The position numbers and the translations under genes were made by a program. The notes below the pieces were generated by a model. It had not been told where the DNA came from, searched no databases, and was given only the letters and a program-made list of their open reading frames with translations. 64,000 nt of DNA from an uncultured Bradymonadales bacterium (GTDB lineage: Bacteria; Myxococcota_A; Bradymonadia; JAFGEP01): the NCBI GenBank assembly GCA_964503485.1, contig CAZDBH010000003.1, positions 678 through 64,677 of the forward strand, in the 5' to 3' direction. Shown piece by piece: positions 4,472 to 42,181 of this stretch. Positions within the stretch are counted from its first letter, which is position 1. Each line of letters begins with the position of its first letter.

Positions 4472-5828
4472 AATAAGCGTCTCCCTCGCGGAAGTCGTTC
4501 ACAAAGACCGCGAGCTCTTTCAAGAGGTTTGCCAGAGCTATGTCGATCTGTATCGAGTAGCGGTGAAACTTCTCGACAACCAGGGTAGCCGACTGATGGA
4601 CATCCCCAGTCGCGCCGAGCTCTGCCAGTATATCTATGGCTTCCAGACCTGCCGGCTGGGATGTGTTCGCACGGTAAACGCGATCCGATTCCACGAACCG
4701 GCCTTTCAAACAGTGGAACAATCCGTCTGTTTCAGCGGCGCAGAGTACCGAATCGTCCCAATCCACTATGCTACTGACGTAGTTGGCAAGGTCGTCTTCG
4801 GACCGTTTCTGCCGACCACTGTCACGGGCCCTCCAGCGCACTTCTTGGCCATGGATCCGGGTCTGGACGCACGAGCCGCATGGGAAAAAACCGTGCGCTT
4901 CCGAAAGATGAGCCCCACTCTCGCCGAAAAGGTAGCTCGAAACCTGGCGACCGTGATCGAGGTGATGTCGTTTGTCGGTTTCAAGGGGCAGATGACAACC
5001 GATATGCACGTCGAATCGATAACCGAGGCCTACGCGGAGCTCGAAGCGAAGAACAAAGCACTCGAAGCATCCGTTCATACCCTTCAAGGCCTCAACGAAG
5101 AACGCTCGACCTTCCTCGCGAGAATCAGCGATCAGGTCAAGAAGCCGCTCACTAATCTCATCGGATATGCAGAAATGTTGGCCGAAGGAATCGGCGGCGA
5201 CGTTACCGAGGATCAGACCGAGTTTCTCGGGACGATGATCGCCCAAGGCGAACTGATTCTCGGTCTTGCTGAAACGATGGATGAGTTGTCCCTGATCGAG
5301 CGAGGTCAGATCAACATCGCCCCCCATTCGGCGTCGATCGAAGAGCTGCTCATGTCGGTCTTGGACTTTGGGCAGAAGCAAGGCGAGCTACACGACGTCG
5401 AGGTCGAGATTCTCCCAGCCGATCCAGACCTGCCAAAGCTGTGGGTCGACGAAGACAGAATCCGCTCGATTCTGCTGAGAATCATCGACAACGCTGTTAA
5501 GTTCACCCCCGCTGGCGGTCGAGTTGTGATTTCGGCCTTTGGGGAGGACGACATAACCGATGGCGATCCTGTGCCACCCGGCTTCGTCGCATTAGCTGTA
5601 ACCGACAGCGGAATCGGCGTGTCCCCGGCCTATCACGACCAGCTCTTTCACCCGTTCTACAGTGTTCACGGCGCCGAGTCCGCATACACCGGAACGGGCG
5701 TTGGTCTCACGATTGCGGCCGCCTATGCCGAGGCACACGGCGGCAAGATACTCGTGCAGAGCAAGCCAAACGCCGGCTCGACGTTTAGCATCCTCCTGCC
5801 AACCAGTCCGTCGAGTTCACTTCCTTAG
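4452..5828 (+). CDS. Sensor histidine kinase with a Cys-containing N-terminal sensor domain (PocR-like?), HisKA and HATPase_c domains.
   Basis: The H-box is ERSTFLARISDQVKKPL. The N box (IIDNAVKF), G1 (DSGIGV) and G2 (GTGVGL) motifs are present. It overlaps the MglA-like gene by 20 nt. The N-terminal 190 aa are soluble and carry four Cys residues. Confidence 0.8.
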   Translation: MDDLGSEISVSLAEVVHKDRELFQEVCQSYVDLYRVAVKLLDNQGSRLMDIPSRAELCQYIYGFQTCRLGCVRTVNAIRFHEPAFQTVEQSVCFSGAEYRIVPIHYATDVVGKVVFGPFLPTTVTGPPAHFLAMDPGLDARAAWEKTVRFRKMSPTLAEKVARNLATVIEVMSFVGFKGQMTTDMHVESITEAYAELEAKNKALEASVHTLQGLNEERSTFLARISDQVKKPLTNLIGYAEMLAEGIGGDVTEDQTEFLGTMIAQGELILGLAETMDELSLIERGQINIAPHSASIEELLMSVLDFGQKQGELHDVEVEILPADPDLPKLWVDEDRIRSILLRIIDNAVKFTPAGGRVVISAFGEDDITDGDPVPPGFVALAVTDSGIGVSPAYHDQLFHPFYSVHGAESAYTGTGVGLTIAAAYAEAHGGKILVQSKPNAGSTFSILLPTSPSSSLP

Positions 5829-32594: not shown

Positions 32595-34367
32595 TTAGTC
32601 TCCTCCGGTGTCGTTCTCCAACAAGATCAATGGAGCCAGAAACTGTGCTTCGGTCGCAGGTCCACCTTGTAGCACGCCGTACTCGTCAATCAAGCGTTGT
32701 TTCACAGTGGAGGCCCACGTCCGGGCGAGGTGCGCTGTCGCGGGCGAAGCGTTCGCACTGCCCGCCGTCGAGGCTTTGTCTAGCGCAGCGGCAAGGGCCT
32801 CGGACAGTCCTTCGGCTCCGATCTCGTCGCTCAGAATCCGCCCGATCTCGGACGGCTTCACCAAACGGAAGTTCTGGACCCCATCCAGTAGCAATACGAC
32901 TGTCTCAGTTGCCAACAGCGAATCGAAGCTGATCTGATCGATGTTTGGTACGGCGCCTGGTGGCCCCAACAGGAGGGCGACGAGCTCGTCTTTCCGGTGA
33001 TGGCGCAGATTGTAGGTCCAGAGTTCCTTGTACGCGACCAGTGTTAGCTGTTTGGCCGCGTGCTCGATTTGCTCGAGTGTTCGAAAACCCTGCTGGTACA
33101 TTTTCGATCGCATGGGCCTCATCTCGGTGAGGCCGGCCAACAGATCTGTGACATCCGCGCCACACAGGGAAGAGCTCAAGCCTTCGACCAGCGTGAGATT
33201 CTCCCGTTGTAGTAGGATCTTTGCCTGCCGGGCCAGCGAGATACTCAAGCTGTGCCCCACTCGCAGGACGCGCTTCAGCGGCCAAAGATTGAGCAGGCGA
33301 CCTGCGGTCTCAACCTCGCTGTTGGCGAGGTAGCGAAGGCCTACGTTGAGATAGTCGTGGACCCGCCGGAAGGAGTCCTTCAACGCTTCCCCATCTGACG
33401 GACTCTCCAAATTAGCCGACACGGTGATGTTCACTAGTGTACTGATTTGGGAAAACAGAGCGTCCGCCGTCAGGCCATCAGTCACGGTCTGAGTCGCGCT
33501 GTCGAGCGCCTCGCCCAGGAAAGTGGGATTCTCTCTGGTGACCTGCCGGAGTTCGTCGATAATCGGCACCGGCAGCTGTACTGCCGTCCTCGTCGAGAAC
33601 GCCAGAACGTCGGGCTCTTCGGCGTTGAGATCGCGGTCTGCGGCCTCTTTCTCGCCACTGGGATCGACGGGTGCGAAGACGGCTGTAGCCTCTTCCGTCG
33701 GCAGGAACCCGTATTGCTCTATTCGGCCCTTGCGAACCTGGTATGCCGTTTCCTCGAGTGGCGCGTTGAGTTCCCAGCGAGCCGCATGCAGGAACTGGCG
33801 GGCAGCGTCCTGATCTGCTTGATAGAGACGGTGTATGATCAGGCGGATGAGGGCTGCCACATCTGGATCTTCCGGCATCACCAGCGCGTACACACCATCG
33901 GGTGAGGACTGAATCGGAGCGTCAATTACCTGTATCAGCGCTTCGTCCTCTTCCGATCGCCAGAACAGTACATGGACGTGCTCACGAAGAAACCGGCCCA
34001 ACACTTCGGCGTCCAATTCGTGGCTTAGGTCGACGATTTTTTCGTCGTCACCCTGAAACAACAGGGACAGCCAATGTGCCAACCGTTTGTGGTCGAGCGC
34101 ACCCTTAGTCCAACACTCGAAATCGAGGAAGGCCTGTGACTGCTCTCCAGAGGCGAGGTTCACCAGCTCGAGAGCGCTCTCAATCCCAACTTCTCGTATC
34201 AAGCTGTACAGCGCGAAGGCGTCGAGTGCGTGTACTTGGTCCCTGGCATCGTCAGCCGTTATGAGTGCGTCTAGGCGGTCCTTGATCGGGACCTCGGCTA
34301 GTTTTCTAGCCACTGGATCAAAGGGAAGGATGTCGCCCACTGGATGTCTCCTTTGCCGCCGGCACAC
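32595..34367 (-). CDS. Conserved hypothetical cytoplasmic protein (590 aa, helical).
   Basis: Long ORF with genome-typical codon bias. No recognised catalytic motif. The start could be an internal Met. Confidence 0.45.
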   Translation of the reverse strand: MCRRQRRHPVGDILPFDPVARKLAEVPIKDRLDALITADDARDQVHALDAFALYSLIREVGIESALELVNLASGEQSQAFLDFECWTKGALDHKRLAHWLSLLFQGDDEKIVDLSHELDAEVLGRFLREHVHVLFWRSEEDEALIQVIDAPIQSSPDGVYALVMPEDPDVAALIRLIIHRLYQADQDAARQFLHAARWELNAPLEETAYQVRKGRIEQYGFLPTEEATAVFAPVDPSGEKEAADRDLNAEEPDVLAFSTRTAVQLPVPIIDELRQVTRENPTFLGEALDSATQTVTDGLTADALFSQISTLVNITVSANLESPSDGEALKDSFRRVHDYLNVGLRYLANSEVETAGRLLNLWPLKRVLRVGHSLSISLARQAKILLQRENLTLVEGLSSSLCGADVTDLLAGLTEMRPMRSKMYQQGFRTLEQIEHAAKQLTLVAYKELWTYNLRHHRKDELVALLLGPPGAVPNIDQISFDSLLATETVVLLLDGVQNFRLVKPSEIGRILSDEIGAEGLSEALAAALDKASTAGSANASPATAHLARTWASTVKQRLIDEYGVLQGGPATEAQFLAPLILLENDTGGD

Positions 34368-34577
34368 GGCGAGCGTAGAGGCTTCCTAAAGCAGGTTTAC
34401 CGGGTGCTGGCAACAGAATTCTCCACTGGGTGGCGAGTAGAGGAACCAGGTGGCAAATATACTAGCCAGTGGGGGTCCCGGCTGGGGCCGAACCACCCCA
34501 GACCCGAACTTAAGCAAGGCATTACAACGACTTACACCTGGAAGGCGAGGGCGTACCGGGTGGATACTCCAGTTGAT

Positions 34578-34617
34578 CTGTCACAACAGACCCCAGATTC
34601 TGAGGGTCTGTGACACA
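34578..34617. promoter_or_regulatory. Imperfect palindrome TGTCAC-N3-AGACCC [11 nt] GGGTCT-G-TGACA, a candidate operator or RNA stem-loop.
   Basis: ctgtcacaacagacccc agattctga gggtctgtgacac. Located about 210-250 bp upstream of the start of ORF 32595-34367. Confidence 0.4.
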
Positions 34618-35150
34618 AATTTCTGGATCTGCGCACGCCACCCAATCGAGGGCGGACACCGGTAACACTCGGAGAGATGAGAAAAACCGGATACAAAACA
34701 ACGATTTAACTATAAACGTGAAATAAAAACAGGACGAAAACCTGTTTTGGCACACAGCTTGTATATGTACTGGTCATTCGCTGGCGATACTGAAAGAGCG
34801 CTGGCACAAATGATTTTTTTTGAATGTTTTTGCTGAATGGCCATCTAACGATTATTGAATGGCTCGAATGATTCGAATGGCTTTTTTTAATGGAATGATT
34901 TTCTTTTTTGACTTCCGCCCTGGATCGTAGTGGTCTTTGGTTTGGATTTAGGTTTCCTGGCGATACACTCGGGCCCCGTCATTGCGTACGGTGTGCTAGT
35001 CGAGTAAACGCCCGGTCGTCGAAAGGCGATAGTCGGGTCGCTTCGGATTACCAGCATTGCGAAGGTAATCAATCGAAGAAGTCAGGGAAGGATCGCAAAC
35101 TGCGATGGGCGTTATCGGCATCCATGCATTTTAATGTACTATTGGGTTGC

Positions 35151-38100
35151 CTATAGATTGGCCCTCGTCAAACGACGAGGGCCTTTTTTCTTTCTTGTTA
35201 GGCCAACCGCAATCAGTCCCATCCAGATCAGGAATCCCCGCGGCGATTCGGCGGTAATCGAACAGGCACAGTCTGAAGGCGGGGTTGTTCGGTCGTCCGC
35301 TGGGGTGTAGCCACCGGTGTCGAAGGAGAAGAGGTCGTCTGCGTCGCCACCGATCGACACCGCGTCAGATTCGTCCTCGACATCAGCACCCATATCTTCG
35401 CCAACCCGATTTGCTATCGTAATCGTGTGGCTGGTCGGCTGGCTGTTCGCACTGCCATCGAATACCACCAAGATGTACGTGCGCTCACTCCCGTCGGGTA
35501 GGTCGGGAACCAAGACGGTGATGAACTCGGTAGAAGGATCGTCGATGGCGACCGCTTCCGGCTCGAGAGGCGTCCAGTAGTGGGTCAACTCACCATCGTC
35601 GGAGGTGGAGTCACGGCCGTCCAATACGATCAGCTCACCGGGGACACCGGTCTCAGGCCCGGTTATCACAGCGGTCGGTATCTGGGCGTTGTTGAAGCGC
35701 TGAACGTCGATTGCGGTCACCCGAGCGTCACTGTCCGACAGGAAATCGCTGACCACGAGTTCGAACTCGAGCGTCACCTGCTCGCCCGGCCCGATGTCAG
35801 GGGCCTCGAGTGTGACGACTGCTTGTTCGTCGTCGAAGGATCCGACCTCTGGACCAGAGACCTGCACCCACAGGAACGAGAGTTCGTCGCCATCTGGGTC
35901 GAAAGACCGTCTGCCGTCGAGTGTAATCAAAGATTGGTCTGCCACCTGCTGGTTGGGGCCTGGATCTGCGATTGGAGGGCTGTTGGGTGGACGGCAGAGT
36001 CCGTCTCGGCAGAAGCCGGCGGTAGGGCACTCGTCGTCGTCGTCACACTCGAATTCGCACACCCCGCCACTGCAATCGGCCTCACCACAGTCGGTTCGCG
36101 TTCCCCGGACACACAGGCCACCGATGTCGCAAATGGCTGGGGGATCGGCGAACCGTCCGCTGCACAGGCCGTCTCCACAGACGTGTCCCACCTCGACCGC
36201 TGCGACTACACAGCTCTCAGCCATTTCGTCGCATGATCCACGCTGACACTCGGCGTCGAGCGAGCTGCAGTCGACGGGTTCGTCACCGCTAGTGCACACG
36301 CCGCTCCTGCAGTGGTCTGCGCCGTTACAATAGGAGCCATCGTCGCAGTCCTCACCCTCGAACTCGTCGCTGTCAACTTCACACTCGTCCGTTGTGGTGT
36401 TGCAAACGCCCAGGTTGCACGTGTCGGTGAGGTGTTCGCAGGTGGGCGCAGAGCCGGGGCGACACACGCCTGAGCCGCAGATTTCGGCGCCATTGCAGAA
36501 GACGCCGTCACTACAGGACTCACCGTTCAAGATTGACGCGTCGCGTTCGCACTCATCCGTTCTGACGTTACACACCCCGACACTACACTGATCATCTAGA
36601 TCAGAGCAGTCGGTCTCGCCACTGCCTACGCAGAGCCCTCGCGCATCGCACGTGTCATTTCGGGTGCAAAAGGTCTCATCGTCACAGACCGCTCCAACCT
36701 CAGGTACCCAGCCCGTTTCATCCACACTCGGATCGCAGATTTTACACTCGCCCTCGGCGGGTCGTTCATCCTCCCGGTAGCACTCGCCGTCGACCACGCA
36801 TCCAACGCAGCAGATCGAGTCCACACAGCGACTAGAGGCGCACTGCCGATCGTCACTGCAGGTAAGCCCCTCCTCCAGCAGGATCGTCGTCGCGACCCCC
36901 GTGAGTTGTGTCCAACCCAGCAGGTTCACCGCATCGCCGACCGGTGTTCCCGACGAAGAGACCATCTGGGCGTTCCCGTGGTCCCCCACGACGATGAACT
37001 GACTCCCTGTCCAAGCAGCAGAACGTACCGTCGCGCCCTCGAGGGCGACGTTCACTGCGCTGGCCCGCGAACCGAACGCATCGAGAAGCTGAACACCACC
37101 GCCGTCGCCCACAGCCAAAGCGTTCGTTCCATTCCAAACTAGAGCGTGAGTGCATTCCCCTTCGAGTATTTCGGCATAGGCATCCAGTCGGCCGATTGGA
37201 ATGCCTGCGGCGCTGACGCGTTGAATCGCATCGCAGCCCGCAATCAGCCACTCTTCACCGTTCCATTCGACGGCCTGCACCGCTTCCCCATCGAAAACCG
37301 AGATGCTTGCCACTGCCAGCTCGCCGTATTCGTCCGCTCGCCGAATCGCACCCGTGCTTCCGAAAAGAAACTCTCGGCCGTTCCAGGCTGCAGAGCTGAT
37401 CGTCAGACCGTCAAACACGGATACCGGGTCACTTGTCGGTGTTCCCGTGTCGTCCAGAAACACGAACTGACCGTTGCTCGAAGCCAACAGCCAACCGGCT
37501 CCTCGAAACAGGAGAATCGGTGTGGCACCAACGTCCTCGGCGAGTTCGGTATCGGCCGGTTCCTTTACCAGGGGCCCCTCGAGGACCAGCTGACGTGTCC
37601 ACCGGTGGGACGCAGCGAGCCAAAGAGAGCCGTCCCAACTCACCGTAGTGCGCCTAGTCTGCTCTGAAAACACCGTGAGCGGTACTGGGGGCTCGTCGGC
37701 TACGCCCGCATCCGAGACCGTGCTCACTGCCCCAAACTCTCCAACCAGGAGCCACTCGACTCCGGTCCAGGTCGCGGCGTGTATCGAATGACCACCCAGT
37801 GCGCGACCGACTTCTGAGGTCGGAACGCCCGAGGTGCTGAGCAAGCGAAACTGACCGTAGTCGCCCACTGCCACGATCGACTCGGAACCGTCAAAGGCTA
37901 GATCATGGATCCATCCGTCCAACACCTCGACGGGGTCGTCGATTGAGCCCCCTTCGTGAAGGAGCTGAACGAAGCCCGTATCGCCTGCAATCAACCAATC
38001 GGTGCCGTTGTAGAGGATACTCGTGACGACCTCAAAGCTGGTTTCGACACAGGTGCCGACCTCATCGGAAGCATCTACAAAACAGACGCTTCCACCCTGG

Positions 38101-38807
38101 CCGCCGACGATCCAACCCGCTCCGGCCTCGGCTGCCGCGAAGAGAGCGGAGCCGCCCGTCGGTTCGTAAATCGTACCAGTCGGCACGCCGCCGGATGTGA
38201 CCCGCTGCGCTTCTCCATTCAATCCGACAACAAGCCATTGGGTTCCGTTCCAGGCAGCGGCATTGACCGCGGTGCTGTTCAGCGCGGTCCGGGCAGGACC
38301 CACGTCGAAACTGGAGTCGATGCGGACAATCTGCCCTTTCGAACTCGTCACGAGCCAATCGGAACCACTCCAACTCGCACTGAGCGCATTGCCAGACTCG
38401 AACGGTGTGAGGCTCGAGTGGGTCCCTTGGAGACCGTCCTTGTCCAACTCTCCAACCGTGTTTTCATCTCCGAGGGCGAGTGCCGAGGCGTCGCCCCAGA
38501 TAACATCGTTTAGGGTCTCTTCACCCAGAGGTGGTGCCCAGGCGGATCCACCGTCGAGCGTCTCGAAACGCGTTGCGACTCCATCTTGCCCGACCACGAC
38601 GAACTGCGGCTGCGCTGCTAGGGCAGTGGGCAGAAGAAAGATGAGTGTGAATGGGAGCGCAAGGATCGAGTGTCGAAACTGAGTGGGGACTGTTTGGATG
38701 AGGCTACTGGAACCGTGCAAGAGTGCCCTCGTACGACGATGGAATAGGATCCCGTAGGGGCGCGGGCTGAGAAGAATCGAGGAGGCTAGAACTGACCTCC
38801 GAGCCAA
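35151..38807 (-). CDS. Giant secreted surface protein with N-terminal W-x-G propeller-like repeats, Cys-rich repeats (myxobacterial disulfide-repeat type), PKD-like domains and a MYXO-CTERM-like tail.
   Basis: Signal peptide, then eight or more copies of about 40 aa with [AV]xW[NT]G..[WF]L[IV][AV]G..G. A block of CxxGxCxxxxxxC / DxxCxxGxC repeats follows. PKD-like (IADPGPNQQV...LDG..S.DPDGD.L...W) and Ig-like domains come next. The terminal DCACS..FLIWMGLIAVGL-TRKKK is the MYXO-CTERM-like tail. Confidence 0.75.
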   Translation of the reverse strand: MARRSVLASSILLSPRPYGILFHRRTRALLHGSSSLIQTVPTQFRHSILALPFTLIFLLPTALAAQPQFVVVGQDGVATRFETLDGGSAWAPPLGEETLNDVIWGDASALALGDENTVGELDKDGLQGTHSSLTPFESGNALSASWSGSDWLVTSSKGQIVRIDSSFDVGPARTALNSTAVNAAAWNGTQWLVVGLNGEAQRVTSGGVPTGTIYEPTGGSALFAAAEAGAGWIVGGQGGSVCFVDASDEVGTCVETSFEVVTSILYNGTDWLIAGDTGFVQLLHEGGSIDDPVEVLDGWIHDLAFDGSESIVAVGDYGQFRLLSTSGVPTSEVGRALGGHSIHAATWTGVEWLLVGEFGAVSTVSDAGVADEPPVPLTVFSEQTRRTTVSWDGSLWLAASHRWTRQLVLEGPLVKEPADTELAEDVGATPILLFRGAGWLLASSNGQFVFLDDTGTPTSDPVSVFDGLTISSAAWNGREFLFGSTGAIRRADEYGELAVASISVFDGEAVQAVEWNGEEWLIAGCDAIQRVSAAGIPIGRLDAYAEILEGECTHALVWNGTNALAVGDGGGVQLLDAFGSRASAVNVALEGATVRSAAWTGSQFIVVGDHGNAQMVSSSGTPVGDAVNLLGWTQLTGVATTILLEEGLTCSDDRQCASSRCVDSICCVGCVVDGECYREDERPAEGECKICDPSVDETGWVPEVGAVCDDETFCTRNDTCDARGLCVGSGETDCSDLDDQCSVGVCNVRTDECERDASILNGESCSDGVFCNGAEICGSGVCRPGSAPTCEHLTDTCNLGVCNTTTDECEVDSDEFEGEDCDDGSYCNGADHCRSGVCTSGDEPVDCSSLDAECQRGSCDEMAESCVVAAVEVGHVCGDGLCSGRFADPPAICDIGGLCVRGTRTDCGEADCSGGVCEFECDDDDECPTAGFCRDGLCRPPNSPPIADPGPNQQVADQSLITLDGRRSFDPDGDELSFLWVQVSGPEVGSFDDEQAVVTLEAPDIGPGEQVTLEFELVVSDFLSDSDARVTAIDVQRFNNAQIPTAVITGPETGVPGELIVLDGRDSTSDDGELTHYWTPLEPEAVAIDDPSTEFITVLVPDLPDGSERTYILVVFDGSANSQPTSHTITIANRVGEDMGADVEDESDAVSIGGDADDLFSFDTGGYTPADDRTTPPSDCACSITAESPRGFLIWMGLIAVGLTRKKKGPRRLTRANL
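35161..35190 (+). terminator. Plus-strand intrinsic-terminator-like hairpin (GCCCTCGTC-AAAC-GACGAGGGC followed by CTTTTTTC) lying inside the last codons of the minus-strand adhesin gene.
   Basis: Perfect 9-bp GC-rich stem, 4-nt loop and a T-run on the plus strand only. It follows the small plus-strand ORF 34908-35156. Confidence 0.5.
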
Positions 38808-41803: not shown

Positions 41804-42181
41804 TCAGTCCTCCCCTTCCGGCAGCGCTTTGCACAATGCTTGCAGTTTCGAAGCCAGGCCTTGTTGCTCGTTTTCGATCGCCTCCAGGCGAGCAGCTATC
41901 GATCGGTGTAAGACCTCGCTCTGGTCGGATAGCTCCACAACGCGAGCAGTCGTCTCACTGACACGGGCTTGGAGGGCGGAAAACTCGGCTTTGACGAGGG
42001 CTCCGAGCCCAGCGGCAGCAGCTTCGAGTCGTTGAGTCGACTGTTCGATGGCCTGGCCCAACTCCCCACCGACTGCGGCCAGGGCGGCTGGGGTCGAACG
42101 ATTGGACTTCTTTAGGTGGTCCTCGATCTGAGCGAGTAGATCGAGTACCGACGCGACTATTCCTGATTCAGAGAGCTTCAT
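41804..42181 (-). CDS. Hypothetical coiled-coil protein.
   Basis: 125 aa, Ala/Leu/Glu-rich heptad-like. Convergent with 41325-41801. Confidence 0.4.
   Translation of the reverse strand: MKLSESGIVASVLDLLAQIEDHLKKSNRSTPAALAAVGGELGQAIEQSTQRLEAAAAGLGALVKAEFSALQARVSETTARVVELSDQSEVLHRSIAARLEAIENEQQGLASKLQALCKALPEGED

Follow-up and report, generated by a model that had tools for sequence, protein, structure and literature searches.

The gap between two minus-strand genes on contig CAZDBH010000003.1 (GenBank assembly GCA_964503485.1) of an uncultured Bradymonadales bacterium was examined within a stretch of 64,000 nucleotides of that contig (hereafter, the window). This gap, which lies between a DUF6178 gene with a GTG start at 34340 and a PKD-domain open reading frame (ORF) at 35151-38807, can be said with high confidence to contain a structured non-coding RNA gene on the plus strand. 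The content of the gap as a whole is probably best explained by an independent, structured RNA gene of ~415 nt that has a sigma-54-type promoter and a terminator of its own. A small RNA (sRNA) was among several options proposed in a first-pass annotation of this DNA, and it is the option that the comparison with related genomes bears out, since a terminator-ended, structured RNA gene on the plus strand is conserved in at least seven lineages.

Relatives of the DUF6178 protein form 15 clusters, and DNA was fetched around those with 86%, about 50%, and 37% identity; the fetched loci include two metagenome-assembled genomes from NCBI, one of which is labelled Bradymonadales bacterium. The closest relative is L001, whose DUF6178 protein is 86% identical to that of the window, and the other related loci are L004, L006, L008, L139, L141, L142, and L145. 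A gap of 0.7-1.0 kb is present upstream of the DUF6178 gene in every fetched relative with at least 37% DUF6178 identity, and every such gap carries, on the strand opposite DUF6178, one TGGCA(C/T)-N5-(T/G)TG(T/A)A motif and then a GC hairpin with a T-run, the distance from the motif to the end of the T-run being 377-439 nt in every related sequence. Further, nhmmer and covariance-model matches were obtained at all related loci and on one strand only, with a covariance model built here (R1) detecting exactly one copy per locus. The gene on the far side of the RNA differs by lineage and encodes a TPR protein, a PKD protein, or a 205-aa protein. Among DUF6178 relatives at ~30-35% identity, no such gap, no nhmmer match, and no covariance-model match was found, which restricts the element to a single clade of uncultured, Bradymonadia-like organisms. 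Searches of genome contigs with the single DUF6178 protein gave no match, an alignment-based DUF6178 search recovered only relatives at ~30% identity, and a metagenome scan for a DNA pattern (TCGAG..CCCGG..GGYRAT) yielded only chance matches among the matches listed, none of which was confirmed by nhmmer. The RNA gene has so far been found only in this small group of uncultured Bradymonadia-like bacteria.

Comparison of the window with L001 provides a measure of constraint. Identity at third codon positions of the flanking genes is 46-51%, apparently near saturation, and the segments of the gap differ widely from one another in their identity to L001 (Table 1). The RNA block is conserved far beyond neutral expectation, at a level equal to or higher than that of the first and second codon positions of the neighboring genes (82-94%).

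The fold of the 3' domain was modeled with a hand-built, structure-guided alignment of seven sequences that represent six lineages. The alignment was N-padded so that MAFFT kept its columns, and hairpin H4, which MAFFT shifted, was excluded from the pair count. In the model of the 3' 230 nt, helix P0 closes a junction of three hairpins (H1, H2, and H3) that is followed by H4, H5, and the terminator, and single-sequence folds of the 3' 230-260 nt recovered the same elements in most lineages. Across 60 pairs, standard pairs occupy 98.1% of cells versus 89.4 ± 0.9% in shuffled alignments (0 of 500 shuffles reached 98.1%), and 20 of the 60 pairs have changed on both sides versus 8.5 ± 1.8 in shuffles and 1-5 in a control in which partners were slid; sliding the partners by 1-3 columns left 27-49% of cells paired. 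Base pairs are kept by compensatory substitutions beyond both the shuffled and the slid controls. For example, the first pair of P0 is C-G, G-C, or U-A depending on the lineage, the third pair of H3 is U-A, C-G, or G-C, and the inner stems of H1 and H3 have wholly different sequences between lineages and are compensatory throughout. H4 has 2-5 pair types per position, the terminator helix has four compensatory pairs, and the sole variable pair of the almost invariant H5 is U-G, C-G, or U-A, with a single U-U exception. Moreover, L008 carries two insertions, CCGGCGC after the 5' strand of P0 (~5580-5590) and GCGUCGG before its 3' strand (~5430-5440; minus strand of the locus), that are mutually complementary and lengthen P0 by 7 bp, a paired co-insertion that supports the junction model. 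A long-range helix from the first RNAalifold run, ACGCCC/GGGCGT, was replaced by GCCCGG/TCGGGT because two lineages break the former.

The same alignment points to the strand. G·U cells number 47 versus 4 A·C cells, 87.8% of cells pair when the same columns are read as the minus strand, and all three L001 substitutions in H3 turn Watson-Crick pairs into G·U pairs. The excess of G·U, together with a T-run that is found on the plus strand only, establishes the plus strand as the RNA strand. These features also bear on the possibility that the region acts purely at the DNA level, as promoter and operators of the DUF6178 gene plus a terminator for the upstream gene, and forms no stable RNA. Its position between two genes and the conserved palindromes in its DUF6178-proximal part would suit such a role, but contacts between protein and DNA do not explain a block of 230 nt at 93% identity, compensatory changes, or a strand asymmetry in G·U, and the terminator points away from the upstream gene; a purely DNA-level role is accordingly considered very unlikely.

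The first-pass annotation had also placed a stem-loop with a T-run on the plus strand, where an intrinsic terminator is indeed found in all lineages, and had correctly noted that its complement is the last codons of the gene on the opposite strand. That gene was called a giant adhesin, which is an overstatement for a 1218-aa PKD-domain ORF ending in ...RKKKGPRRLTRANL*. The upstream gene and the RNA overlap in the window and in L001 (39 nt in both) and in L139, and they do not overlap in L004, L006, L008, or L142; thus, the overlap is not a conserved feature of the RNA, and the suggestion of an antisense RNA to the adhesin is unsupported as a conserved function. A cis-acting regulator that pairs with, or terminates, the convergent PKD-domain mRNA would be compatible with the overlap where it exists and with a hairpin that could work weakly in both directions. 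The variable identity of the upstream gene, the lineages without overlap, and the sequence AATCTAT, instead of a T-run, after the hairpin on the minus strand make this an improbable account.

An 82-aa ORF on the plus strand had likewise been reported, and it exists at 34908-35156; it is, however, neither conserved nor a gene. In L001, indels of -1 and +1 shift its frame and shorten it to 45 aa; the eight sequences compared have no ORF or peptide in common; most indels in the multi-lineage alignment have lengths that are not divisible by three; and the ORF has no Pfam match. The RNA block cannot be a conserved coding sequence. Besides the ORF itself, the one circumstance in favor of a gene for a small protein, whether this ORF or a shorter one, is that the AUGs of a repeat array described below share one frame in the window (by eye); set against the disrupted frame in L001, the character of the indels, and the lack of a Shine-Dalgarno sequence, such a gene is extremely unlikely.

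Turning to the start of the presumed RNA gene, the sigma-54 consensus is TGGCACG-N4-TTGCW, with a conserved GC in the -12 element. The promoter motif is present in exactly one copy in 9 of 9 distinct related sequences, always on the RNA strand, and no other motif is conserved upstream of the RNA block. Its core is invariant between the window and L001, and the 64 kb of the window contain a single exact copy of it. As in sigma-54 promoters, the -24 element TGGCA(C/T) has an invariant GG in all nine sequences, once per locus, and the GG is 10 nt from the G of the -12 element in all copies. A sigma-70 promoter scan of the region found none. Conservation among the window, L001, and L004 resumes (GTCATTCGCTGGCG) at ~34775, approximately 12 nt past the motif. 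Judged by these motifs, it is reasonably likely that the RNA is driven by a sigma-54 promoter at 34748-34764. A further sequence in the window, TTGCACAATGCTTGCA at 41829-41844 on the plus strand, has a -24/-12 pattern with one mismatch and a canonical TTGCA -12 element, and is situated in a short gap ahead of a plus-strand ORF.

Upstream of the promoter motif, the second palindrome of the first-pass annotation (34578-34617) proved to be TGTCACA-N23-TGTGACA with inner arms ACAGACCC/GGGTCTGT, the sole such site in the window. In the window its half-sites are placed at -169/-139 relative to TGGCAC, offsets that L001 and L004 match to within 1 nt, and forms with one mismatch are found at the same place in L139, L145, and L008; no TGTCACA/TGTGACA half-sites were found in L006, L141, or L142. 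Such a spacing is typical for the site of an enhancer-binding protein, which is expected some 80-200 bp upstream. Between palindrome and promoter, the window has a candidate IHF site, AAACAACGATTTA, with one mismatch to WATCAANNNNTTR, and by eye the equivalent spacer of L001 has a perfect match (AATCAATAGGTTA, minus strand); IHF-like matches number 23 in the window versus 16 expected, which alone is weak evidence. The AAAACAGG-N7-CCTGTTTT hairpin of the first-pass annotation is present next to the -24 element and is not conserved, the left arm being AAAATAGCCGCGAAAACGAGTTTT in L001; this inverted repeat is probably incidental.

The 5' arm of the predicted transcript is hard to align between lineages, with a block TTGACTTCCGCCC...CGTAGTGG common to the window, L139, L145, and L004. 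The five or more GAATGG-type repeats that had been noticed here are real: the 5' arm of the window has 6 GAATG versus 0.7 expected from dinucleotide shuffles (p<0.002). GAATG(G/A/T) occurs at 34822, 34835, 34857, 34866, 34875, and 34893, AAATGA at 34808, and TAATGG at 34888, all on the plus strand and with spacings of 14, 13, 22, 9, 9, 13, and 5 nt that show no helical phasing. GAATGR is not over-represented across the window (56 found versus 68 expected), and the cluster is therefore local. One copy of the motif aligns in all seven lineages. A 13-nt unit (34813-34825; TRF period 13) is present in two copies in the window and in one in L001, while a 9-nt unit repeated three times (TGAATGGCT/CGAATGATT/CGAATGGCT, 34856-34882) was recognized by eye in the window and L001 and is absent from L139, L145, and L004; to judge from these units, the array is changing by slippage. 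In L142, AATGG occurs 7 times versus 1.2 expected, AATGG and GGATGG having accumulated independently, and enrichment in L008 is marginal (2 versus 0.1 expected). A motif of which one or more copies are conserved, and which has multiplied separately in two lineages, suggests a binding platform, a role that is considered less likely than not.

Several observations weigh against the interpretation of the gap as a sigma-54-controlled, ~415-nt RNA gene with a repeat-bearing 5' arm. The transcript and its ends are deduced from sequence. The structural alignment was fitted by hand to the fold, and only six independent lineages contribute to it; minimum free energy z-scores are modest and alike on both strands (-1.9 and -2.3) and so do not discriminate between them; and the four-way junction is unrecognizable in L142, the most distant lineage, which retains the promoter motif, a repeat-rich 5' arm, and H4, H5, and the terminator. 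The -12 element keeps (T/G)TG, but the consensus C is replaced in 9 of 9 sequences, by T in five and by A in four, and no gene for RpoN or for an enhancer-binding protein (GAFTGA or RpoN-box motifs) was found in the 64-kb window or in the fetched loci. With respect to the repeats, L004, L006, and L139 show no enrichment of the GAAUG motif, the predicted accessibility of the motif is above background in L142, L004, and L006 and not in the window, L001, or L139, and an RNA-mRNA duplex test against the translation-initiation region of DUF6178 identified no target or partner.

Some of these points would fit a shorter RNA that comprises only the conserved 3' domain (~240 nt, ~34950-35189) and is transcribed from an unrecognized promoter just upstream, in which case the GAATG repeats and TGGCAC would be sites at the DNA level, such as response-regulator boxes. 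The 5' arm is poorly alignable across lineages, the repeats are direct and on the same strand, as is often so for response-regulator boxes, a TTGACT hexamer lies past the repeats at 34908, and the -12 element is non-canonical. On the other hand, TTGACT is missing from L006 and L008 and is not followed by a -10-like hexamer at 16-18 bp, TGGCAC and the terminator are a conserved distance apart, the repeats lack helical phasing, and the 5' arm is 88% identical to that of L001 versus 38.5% for the untranscribed spacer. The shorter RNA is thus an unlikely, if the most credible, substitute for the ~415-nt RNA gene.

The base composition of the region had suggested other explanations. The dip in GC content reported at 34680-34920 (~35-40%) was confirmed at 36.9% and is the deepest trough in the window, the lowest 200-nt value of which (36.5%, at 34701) is 5.8 standard deviations (sd) under the mean (58.6%, sd 3.8); the background is thus ~59% and not above 60%, as had been stated. 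Such a trough could mark a horizontally acquired AT-rich remnant or an island bound by nucleoid proteins, both of which had been proposed. However, the element occupies the same syntenic position in at least seven lineages, no mobile-element genes or flanking repeats accompany it, and AT-richness is not conserved, the homologous RNA segment having 64% GC in L006 and L141 and low GC being limited to the promoter spacer and the 5' arm. Conserved synteny and the variation in AT-richness refute a horizontally acquired remnant, and a region for nucleoid proteins (MrpC/H-NS-like) finds no support in repeats that lie downstream of the promoter motif and inside the conserved block predicted to be transcribed; there is scarcely any likelihood that either accounts for the locus.

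The ~415-nt RNA was compared with known families. A search with Rfam 15, which covers CrcZ, CsrB/Rsm, 6S, RNase P, SRP, and tmRNA among other families, returned only terminator-like, sub-threshold matches over 33800-35800 at E<=10. The RNA regions of five homologous loci likewise gave no Rfam match, and a tRNA/tmRNA scan with ARAGORN found none. Qrr1-5 and GlmY/GlmZ are sigma-54-dependent sRNAs of 100-200 nt in Gammaproteobacteria that are under the control of a two-component enhancer-binding protein. They resemble the RNA described here in that a -24/-12 promoter drives a trans-acting sRNA, both traits being putative in the present case, yet they are shorter and belong to unrelated families. 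The CsrA sponges CsrB/RsmZ are similarly long and non-coding, with a repeated short motif in a copy number that varies between lineages, but GGA/ANGGA is not enriched in any lineage and there is no Rfam match. A CsrA sponge was rejected because in no lineage does the GGA count exceed the shuffle expectation. CrcZ of Pseudomonas and Azotobacter (and also CrcY/CrcX) is a stand-alone, intergenic RNA of ~407 nt that uses RpoN, CbrB, and IHF (PMC8395346). The RNA examined here is like CrcZ in length, in its -24/-12-type promoter, in its upstream palindrome and AT-rich spacer, and in its repeated short motif. It differs in that it has no sequence or structure homology to CrcZ (no Rfam match at E<=10), belongs to a different phylum, has no adjacent activator gene, and carries GAAUG(G/A) and not the A-rich AANAANAA as its motif, with protein binding here being only proposed. 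A CrcZ-like Hfq decoy acting through A-rich motifs was rejected because AANAANAA (the CrcZ-type, Hfq/Crc motif) has zero copies in 8 of 8 RNAs.

The Pxr sRNA of Myxococcus and other Cystobacterineae is intergenic, with a predicted sigma-54 promoter and enhancer-binding site, multiple stem-loops, and a terminator (PMC5568312). The RNA described here is from the same phylum (Myxococcota) and is similar in outline, its sigma-54 promoter and enhancer-binding site being candidates. Nonetheless, Pxr is ~108 nt long, has three stem-loops, and is found immediately downstream of nla19, the gene for a sigma-54 activator, whereas the present RNA is ~415 nt (377-439 across lineages), has no activator gene nearby, and neighbors DUF6178 and TPR/PKD genes. 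Rfam revealed no similarity to Pxr, which is set apart by length, fold description, and location and not by direct sequence comparison. In outline the RNA is CrcZ-like, yet it fails the membership tests for CrcZ, CsrB/Rsm, and Pxr and is regarded as a new RNA family. CrcZ (PMC8395346) and Pxr (PMC5568312) nevertheless serve as precedents for sRNAs driven by sigma-54.

These considerations allow a working model to be suggested. An enhancer-binding protein at TGTCACA-N23-TGTGACA, 170 bp upstream, would activate the sigma-54-type promoter TGGCAC-N5-TTGTA, with the AT-rich spacer supplying a bend, and transcription would start ~12 nt past the promoter and run from ~34775 to 35189 on the plus strand, divergent from the DUF6178 gene and convergent with the PKD-domain gene. 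The RNA may then act as a regulator in trans, its 5' arm offering GAAUG(G/A) motifs, in varying number, to a protein or to RNAs of complementary sequence in a decoy or sponge arrangement that is CrcZ- or CsrB-like in outline, and its invariant 3' domain might provide stability or bind a second partner. Extended further, this could describe a new class of large, two-module regulatory RNA under sigma-54 control in predatory Bradymonadia, in which a 3' protein-binding domain (H4, H5, and terminator, with or without the four-way junction) is joined to a fast-evolving 5' arm whose slippage-expanded GAAUG(G/A) array titrates an RNA-binding protein or mRNAs containing CCAUUC; as a complete account, this is speculation that is more apt to be wrong than right.

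Table 1. Features of the gap between the DUF6178 and PKD-domain genes and of the predicted RNA gene (positions in the window)
Feature	Position	Strand	Identity to L001	Remarks
Upstream/regulatory region of the divergent DUF6178 gene	34341-34573	-	69.8% overall	with conserved blocks
Palindrome block	34574-34630		96.5%	
Inverted repeat TGTCACA-N23-TGTGACA	34579-34615			candidate upstream activator (enhancer-binding protein) site, putative function
Spacer	34631-34725		38.5%	
Weak IHF-like site AAACAACGATTTA	34696-34708	+		one mismatch; between palindrome and promoter
Inverted repeat AAAACAGG-N7-CCTGTTTT	34726-34748			abuts -24 element
Sigma-54-like promoter TGGCAC-ACAGC-TTGTAT	34748-34764	+		GG at 34749-50; G-T at 34761-62 (consensus G-C)
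Proposed non-coding RNA, ~415 nt	34775-35189	+		predicted 5' end, ±3 nt; 3' end is the T-run
Variable 5' arm	34775-34956	+	88.0%	39% GC here, 64% in L006
Array of 8 (G/A/T)AATG(G/A/T) motifs, one orientation	34808-34898	+		within proposed transcript, 35-125 nt from start
82-aa ORF, TTG start	34908-35156	+		not a gene
3' core and terminator	34957-35190		93.1%	
Four-way junction	34957-35085	+		P0 34957-61 with 35081-85; encloses H1 34968-35004, H2 35010-35038, H3 35041-35078
Hairpin H4 (ATCGC-AAACT-GCGAT)	35092-35106	+		hairpin here in all lineages including L142, sequences differ
Hairpin H5, GGCATCC ... GGGT(T)GCC, one-nucleotide bulge	35117-35151	+		almost invariant; kept in L142
Last 15 codons and stop (RKKKGPRRLTRANL*) of PKD-domain ORF	35151-35198	-		overlaps RNA 3' end
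Intrinsic terminator, 10-bp stem (8 G-C), AAAC loop, T6	35160-35189	+		stem-loop 35160-35183; present in all lineages

Additional observations concern the RNA and its surroundings. The 10-mer CTGGCGATAC occurs twice in the RNA, at 34781-34790 near the predicted 5' end and at 34957-34966 as the 5' strand of P0, and only CTGGCG of the 5' copy is retained in L001; an alternative pairing could arise if this upstream copy competed for GUCAG, the partner strand in P0. The DUF6178 gene (32595-34340, minus strand; 581 aa; Pfam E = 5e-92) encodes a protein with a confidently predicted all-alpha, ARM/HEAT-like repeat fold (pLDDT 86.7, pTM 0.83) that has no significant neighbor in the PDB by fold or by sequence and thus offers no clue to the role of the RNA; a literature search on DUF6178 found no papers. 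Approximately 110 nt upstream of its start, a palindrome TGGCA-N8-AGCCA at 34451-34468 is kept in L001 (as a perfect TGGCA-N8-TGCCA), L004, L139, and L145, with a variant form in L006. Read on the minus strand, this palindrome has a GG...GC spacing that exceeds that of a sigma-54 promoter by one base, and its probable role is that of an operator or promoter element in the DUF6178-SpoIID-like operon. An 89-aa ORF at 34344-34613 on the plus strand (L003 811-1080), annotated as a gene on the public ENA contig, lies within this divergent promoter region, overlaps conserved palindromes, has no Pfam match, and is almost certainly spurious.

At its C-terminus, the PKD-domain ORF (35151-35290, minus strand) ends in ...SDCACSITAESPRGFLIWMGLIAVGLTRKKKGPRRLTRANL*, in which a motif with a Cys, a hydrophobic helix, and a cluster of basic residues make up a tail that resembles, by its sequence, a C-terminal sorting signal of the MYXO-CTERM type. 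With NCBIfam, the protein matched only the body of a myxosortase-dependent M36 peptidase, weakly and in part. In the tail, KKK and GPRR are encoded by the complement of the T-run and stem of the RNA terminator, and the tail differs by one residue in L001; because it is encoded across the complement of the terminator, the basic tail is frozen at the nucleotide level.

Bradymonadia are salt-loving bacterial predators (PMC7460792). A literature search on regulatory RNAs in Bradymonadia found nothing, the genome paper on Bradymonabacteria is silent on both sigma factors and sRNAs, and little is known of the regulatory RNAs of Myxococcota outside Myxococcus. The element described here is conserved more than the proteins that surround it, is long for an sRNA, and has a defined multi-helix fold with no counterpart in Rfam. 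Gene callers place spurious ORFs at this locus, and the RNA gene accounts for the nucleotide-level freezing of the basic C-terminal tail of the PKD protein. Covariance model R1 can be used for mining of metagenomes, and the palindrome, the -24/-12 motif, and the RNA together make up a testable regulatory unit. Finally, the systematic replacement of the C in the -12 element is a natural case relevant to how stringent the requirement for that base is in sigma-54 promoters.

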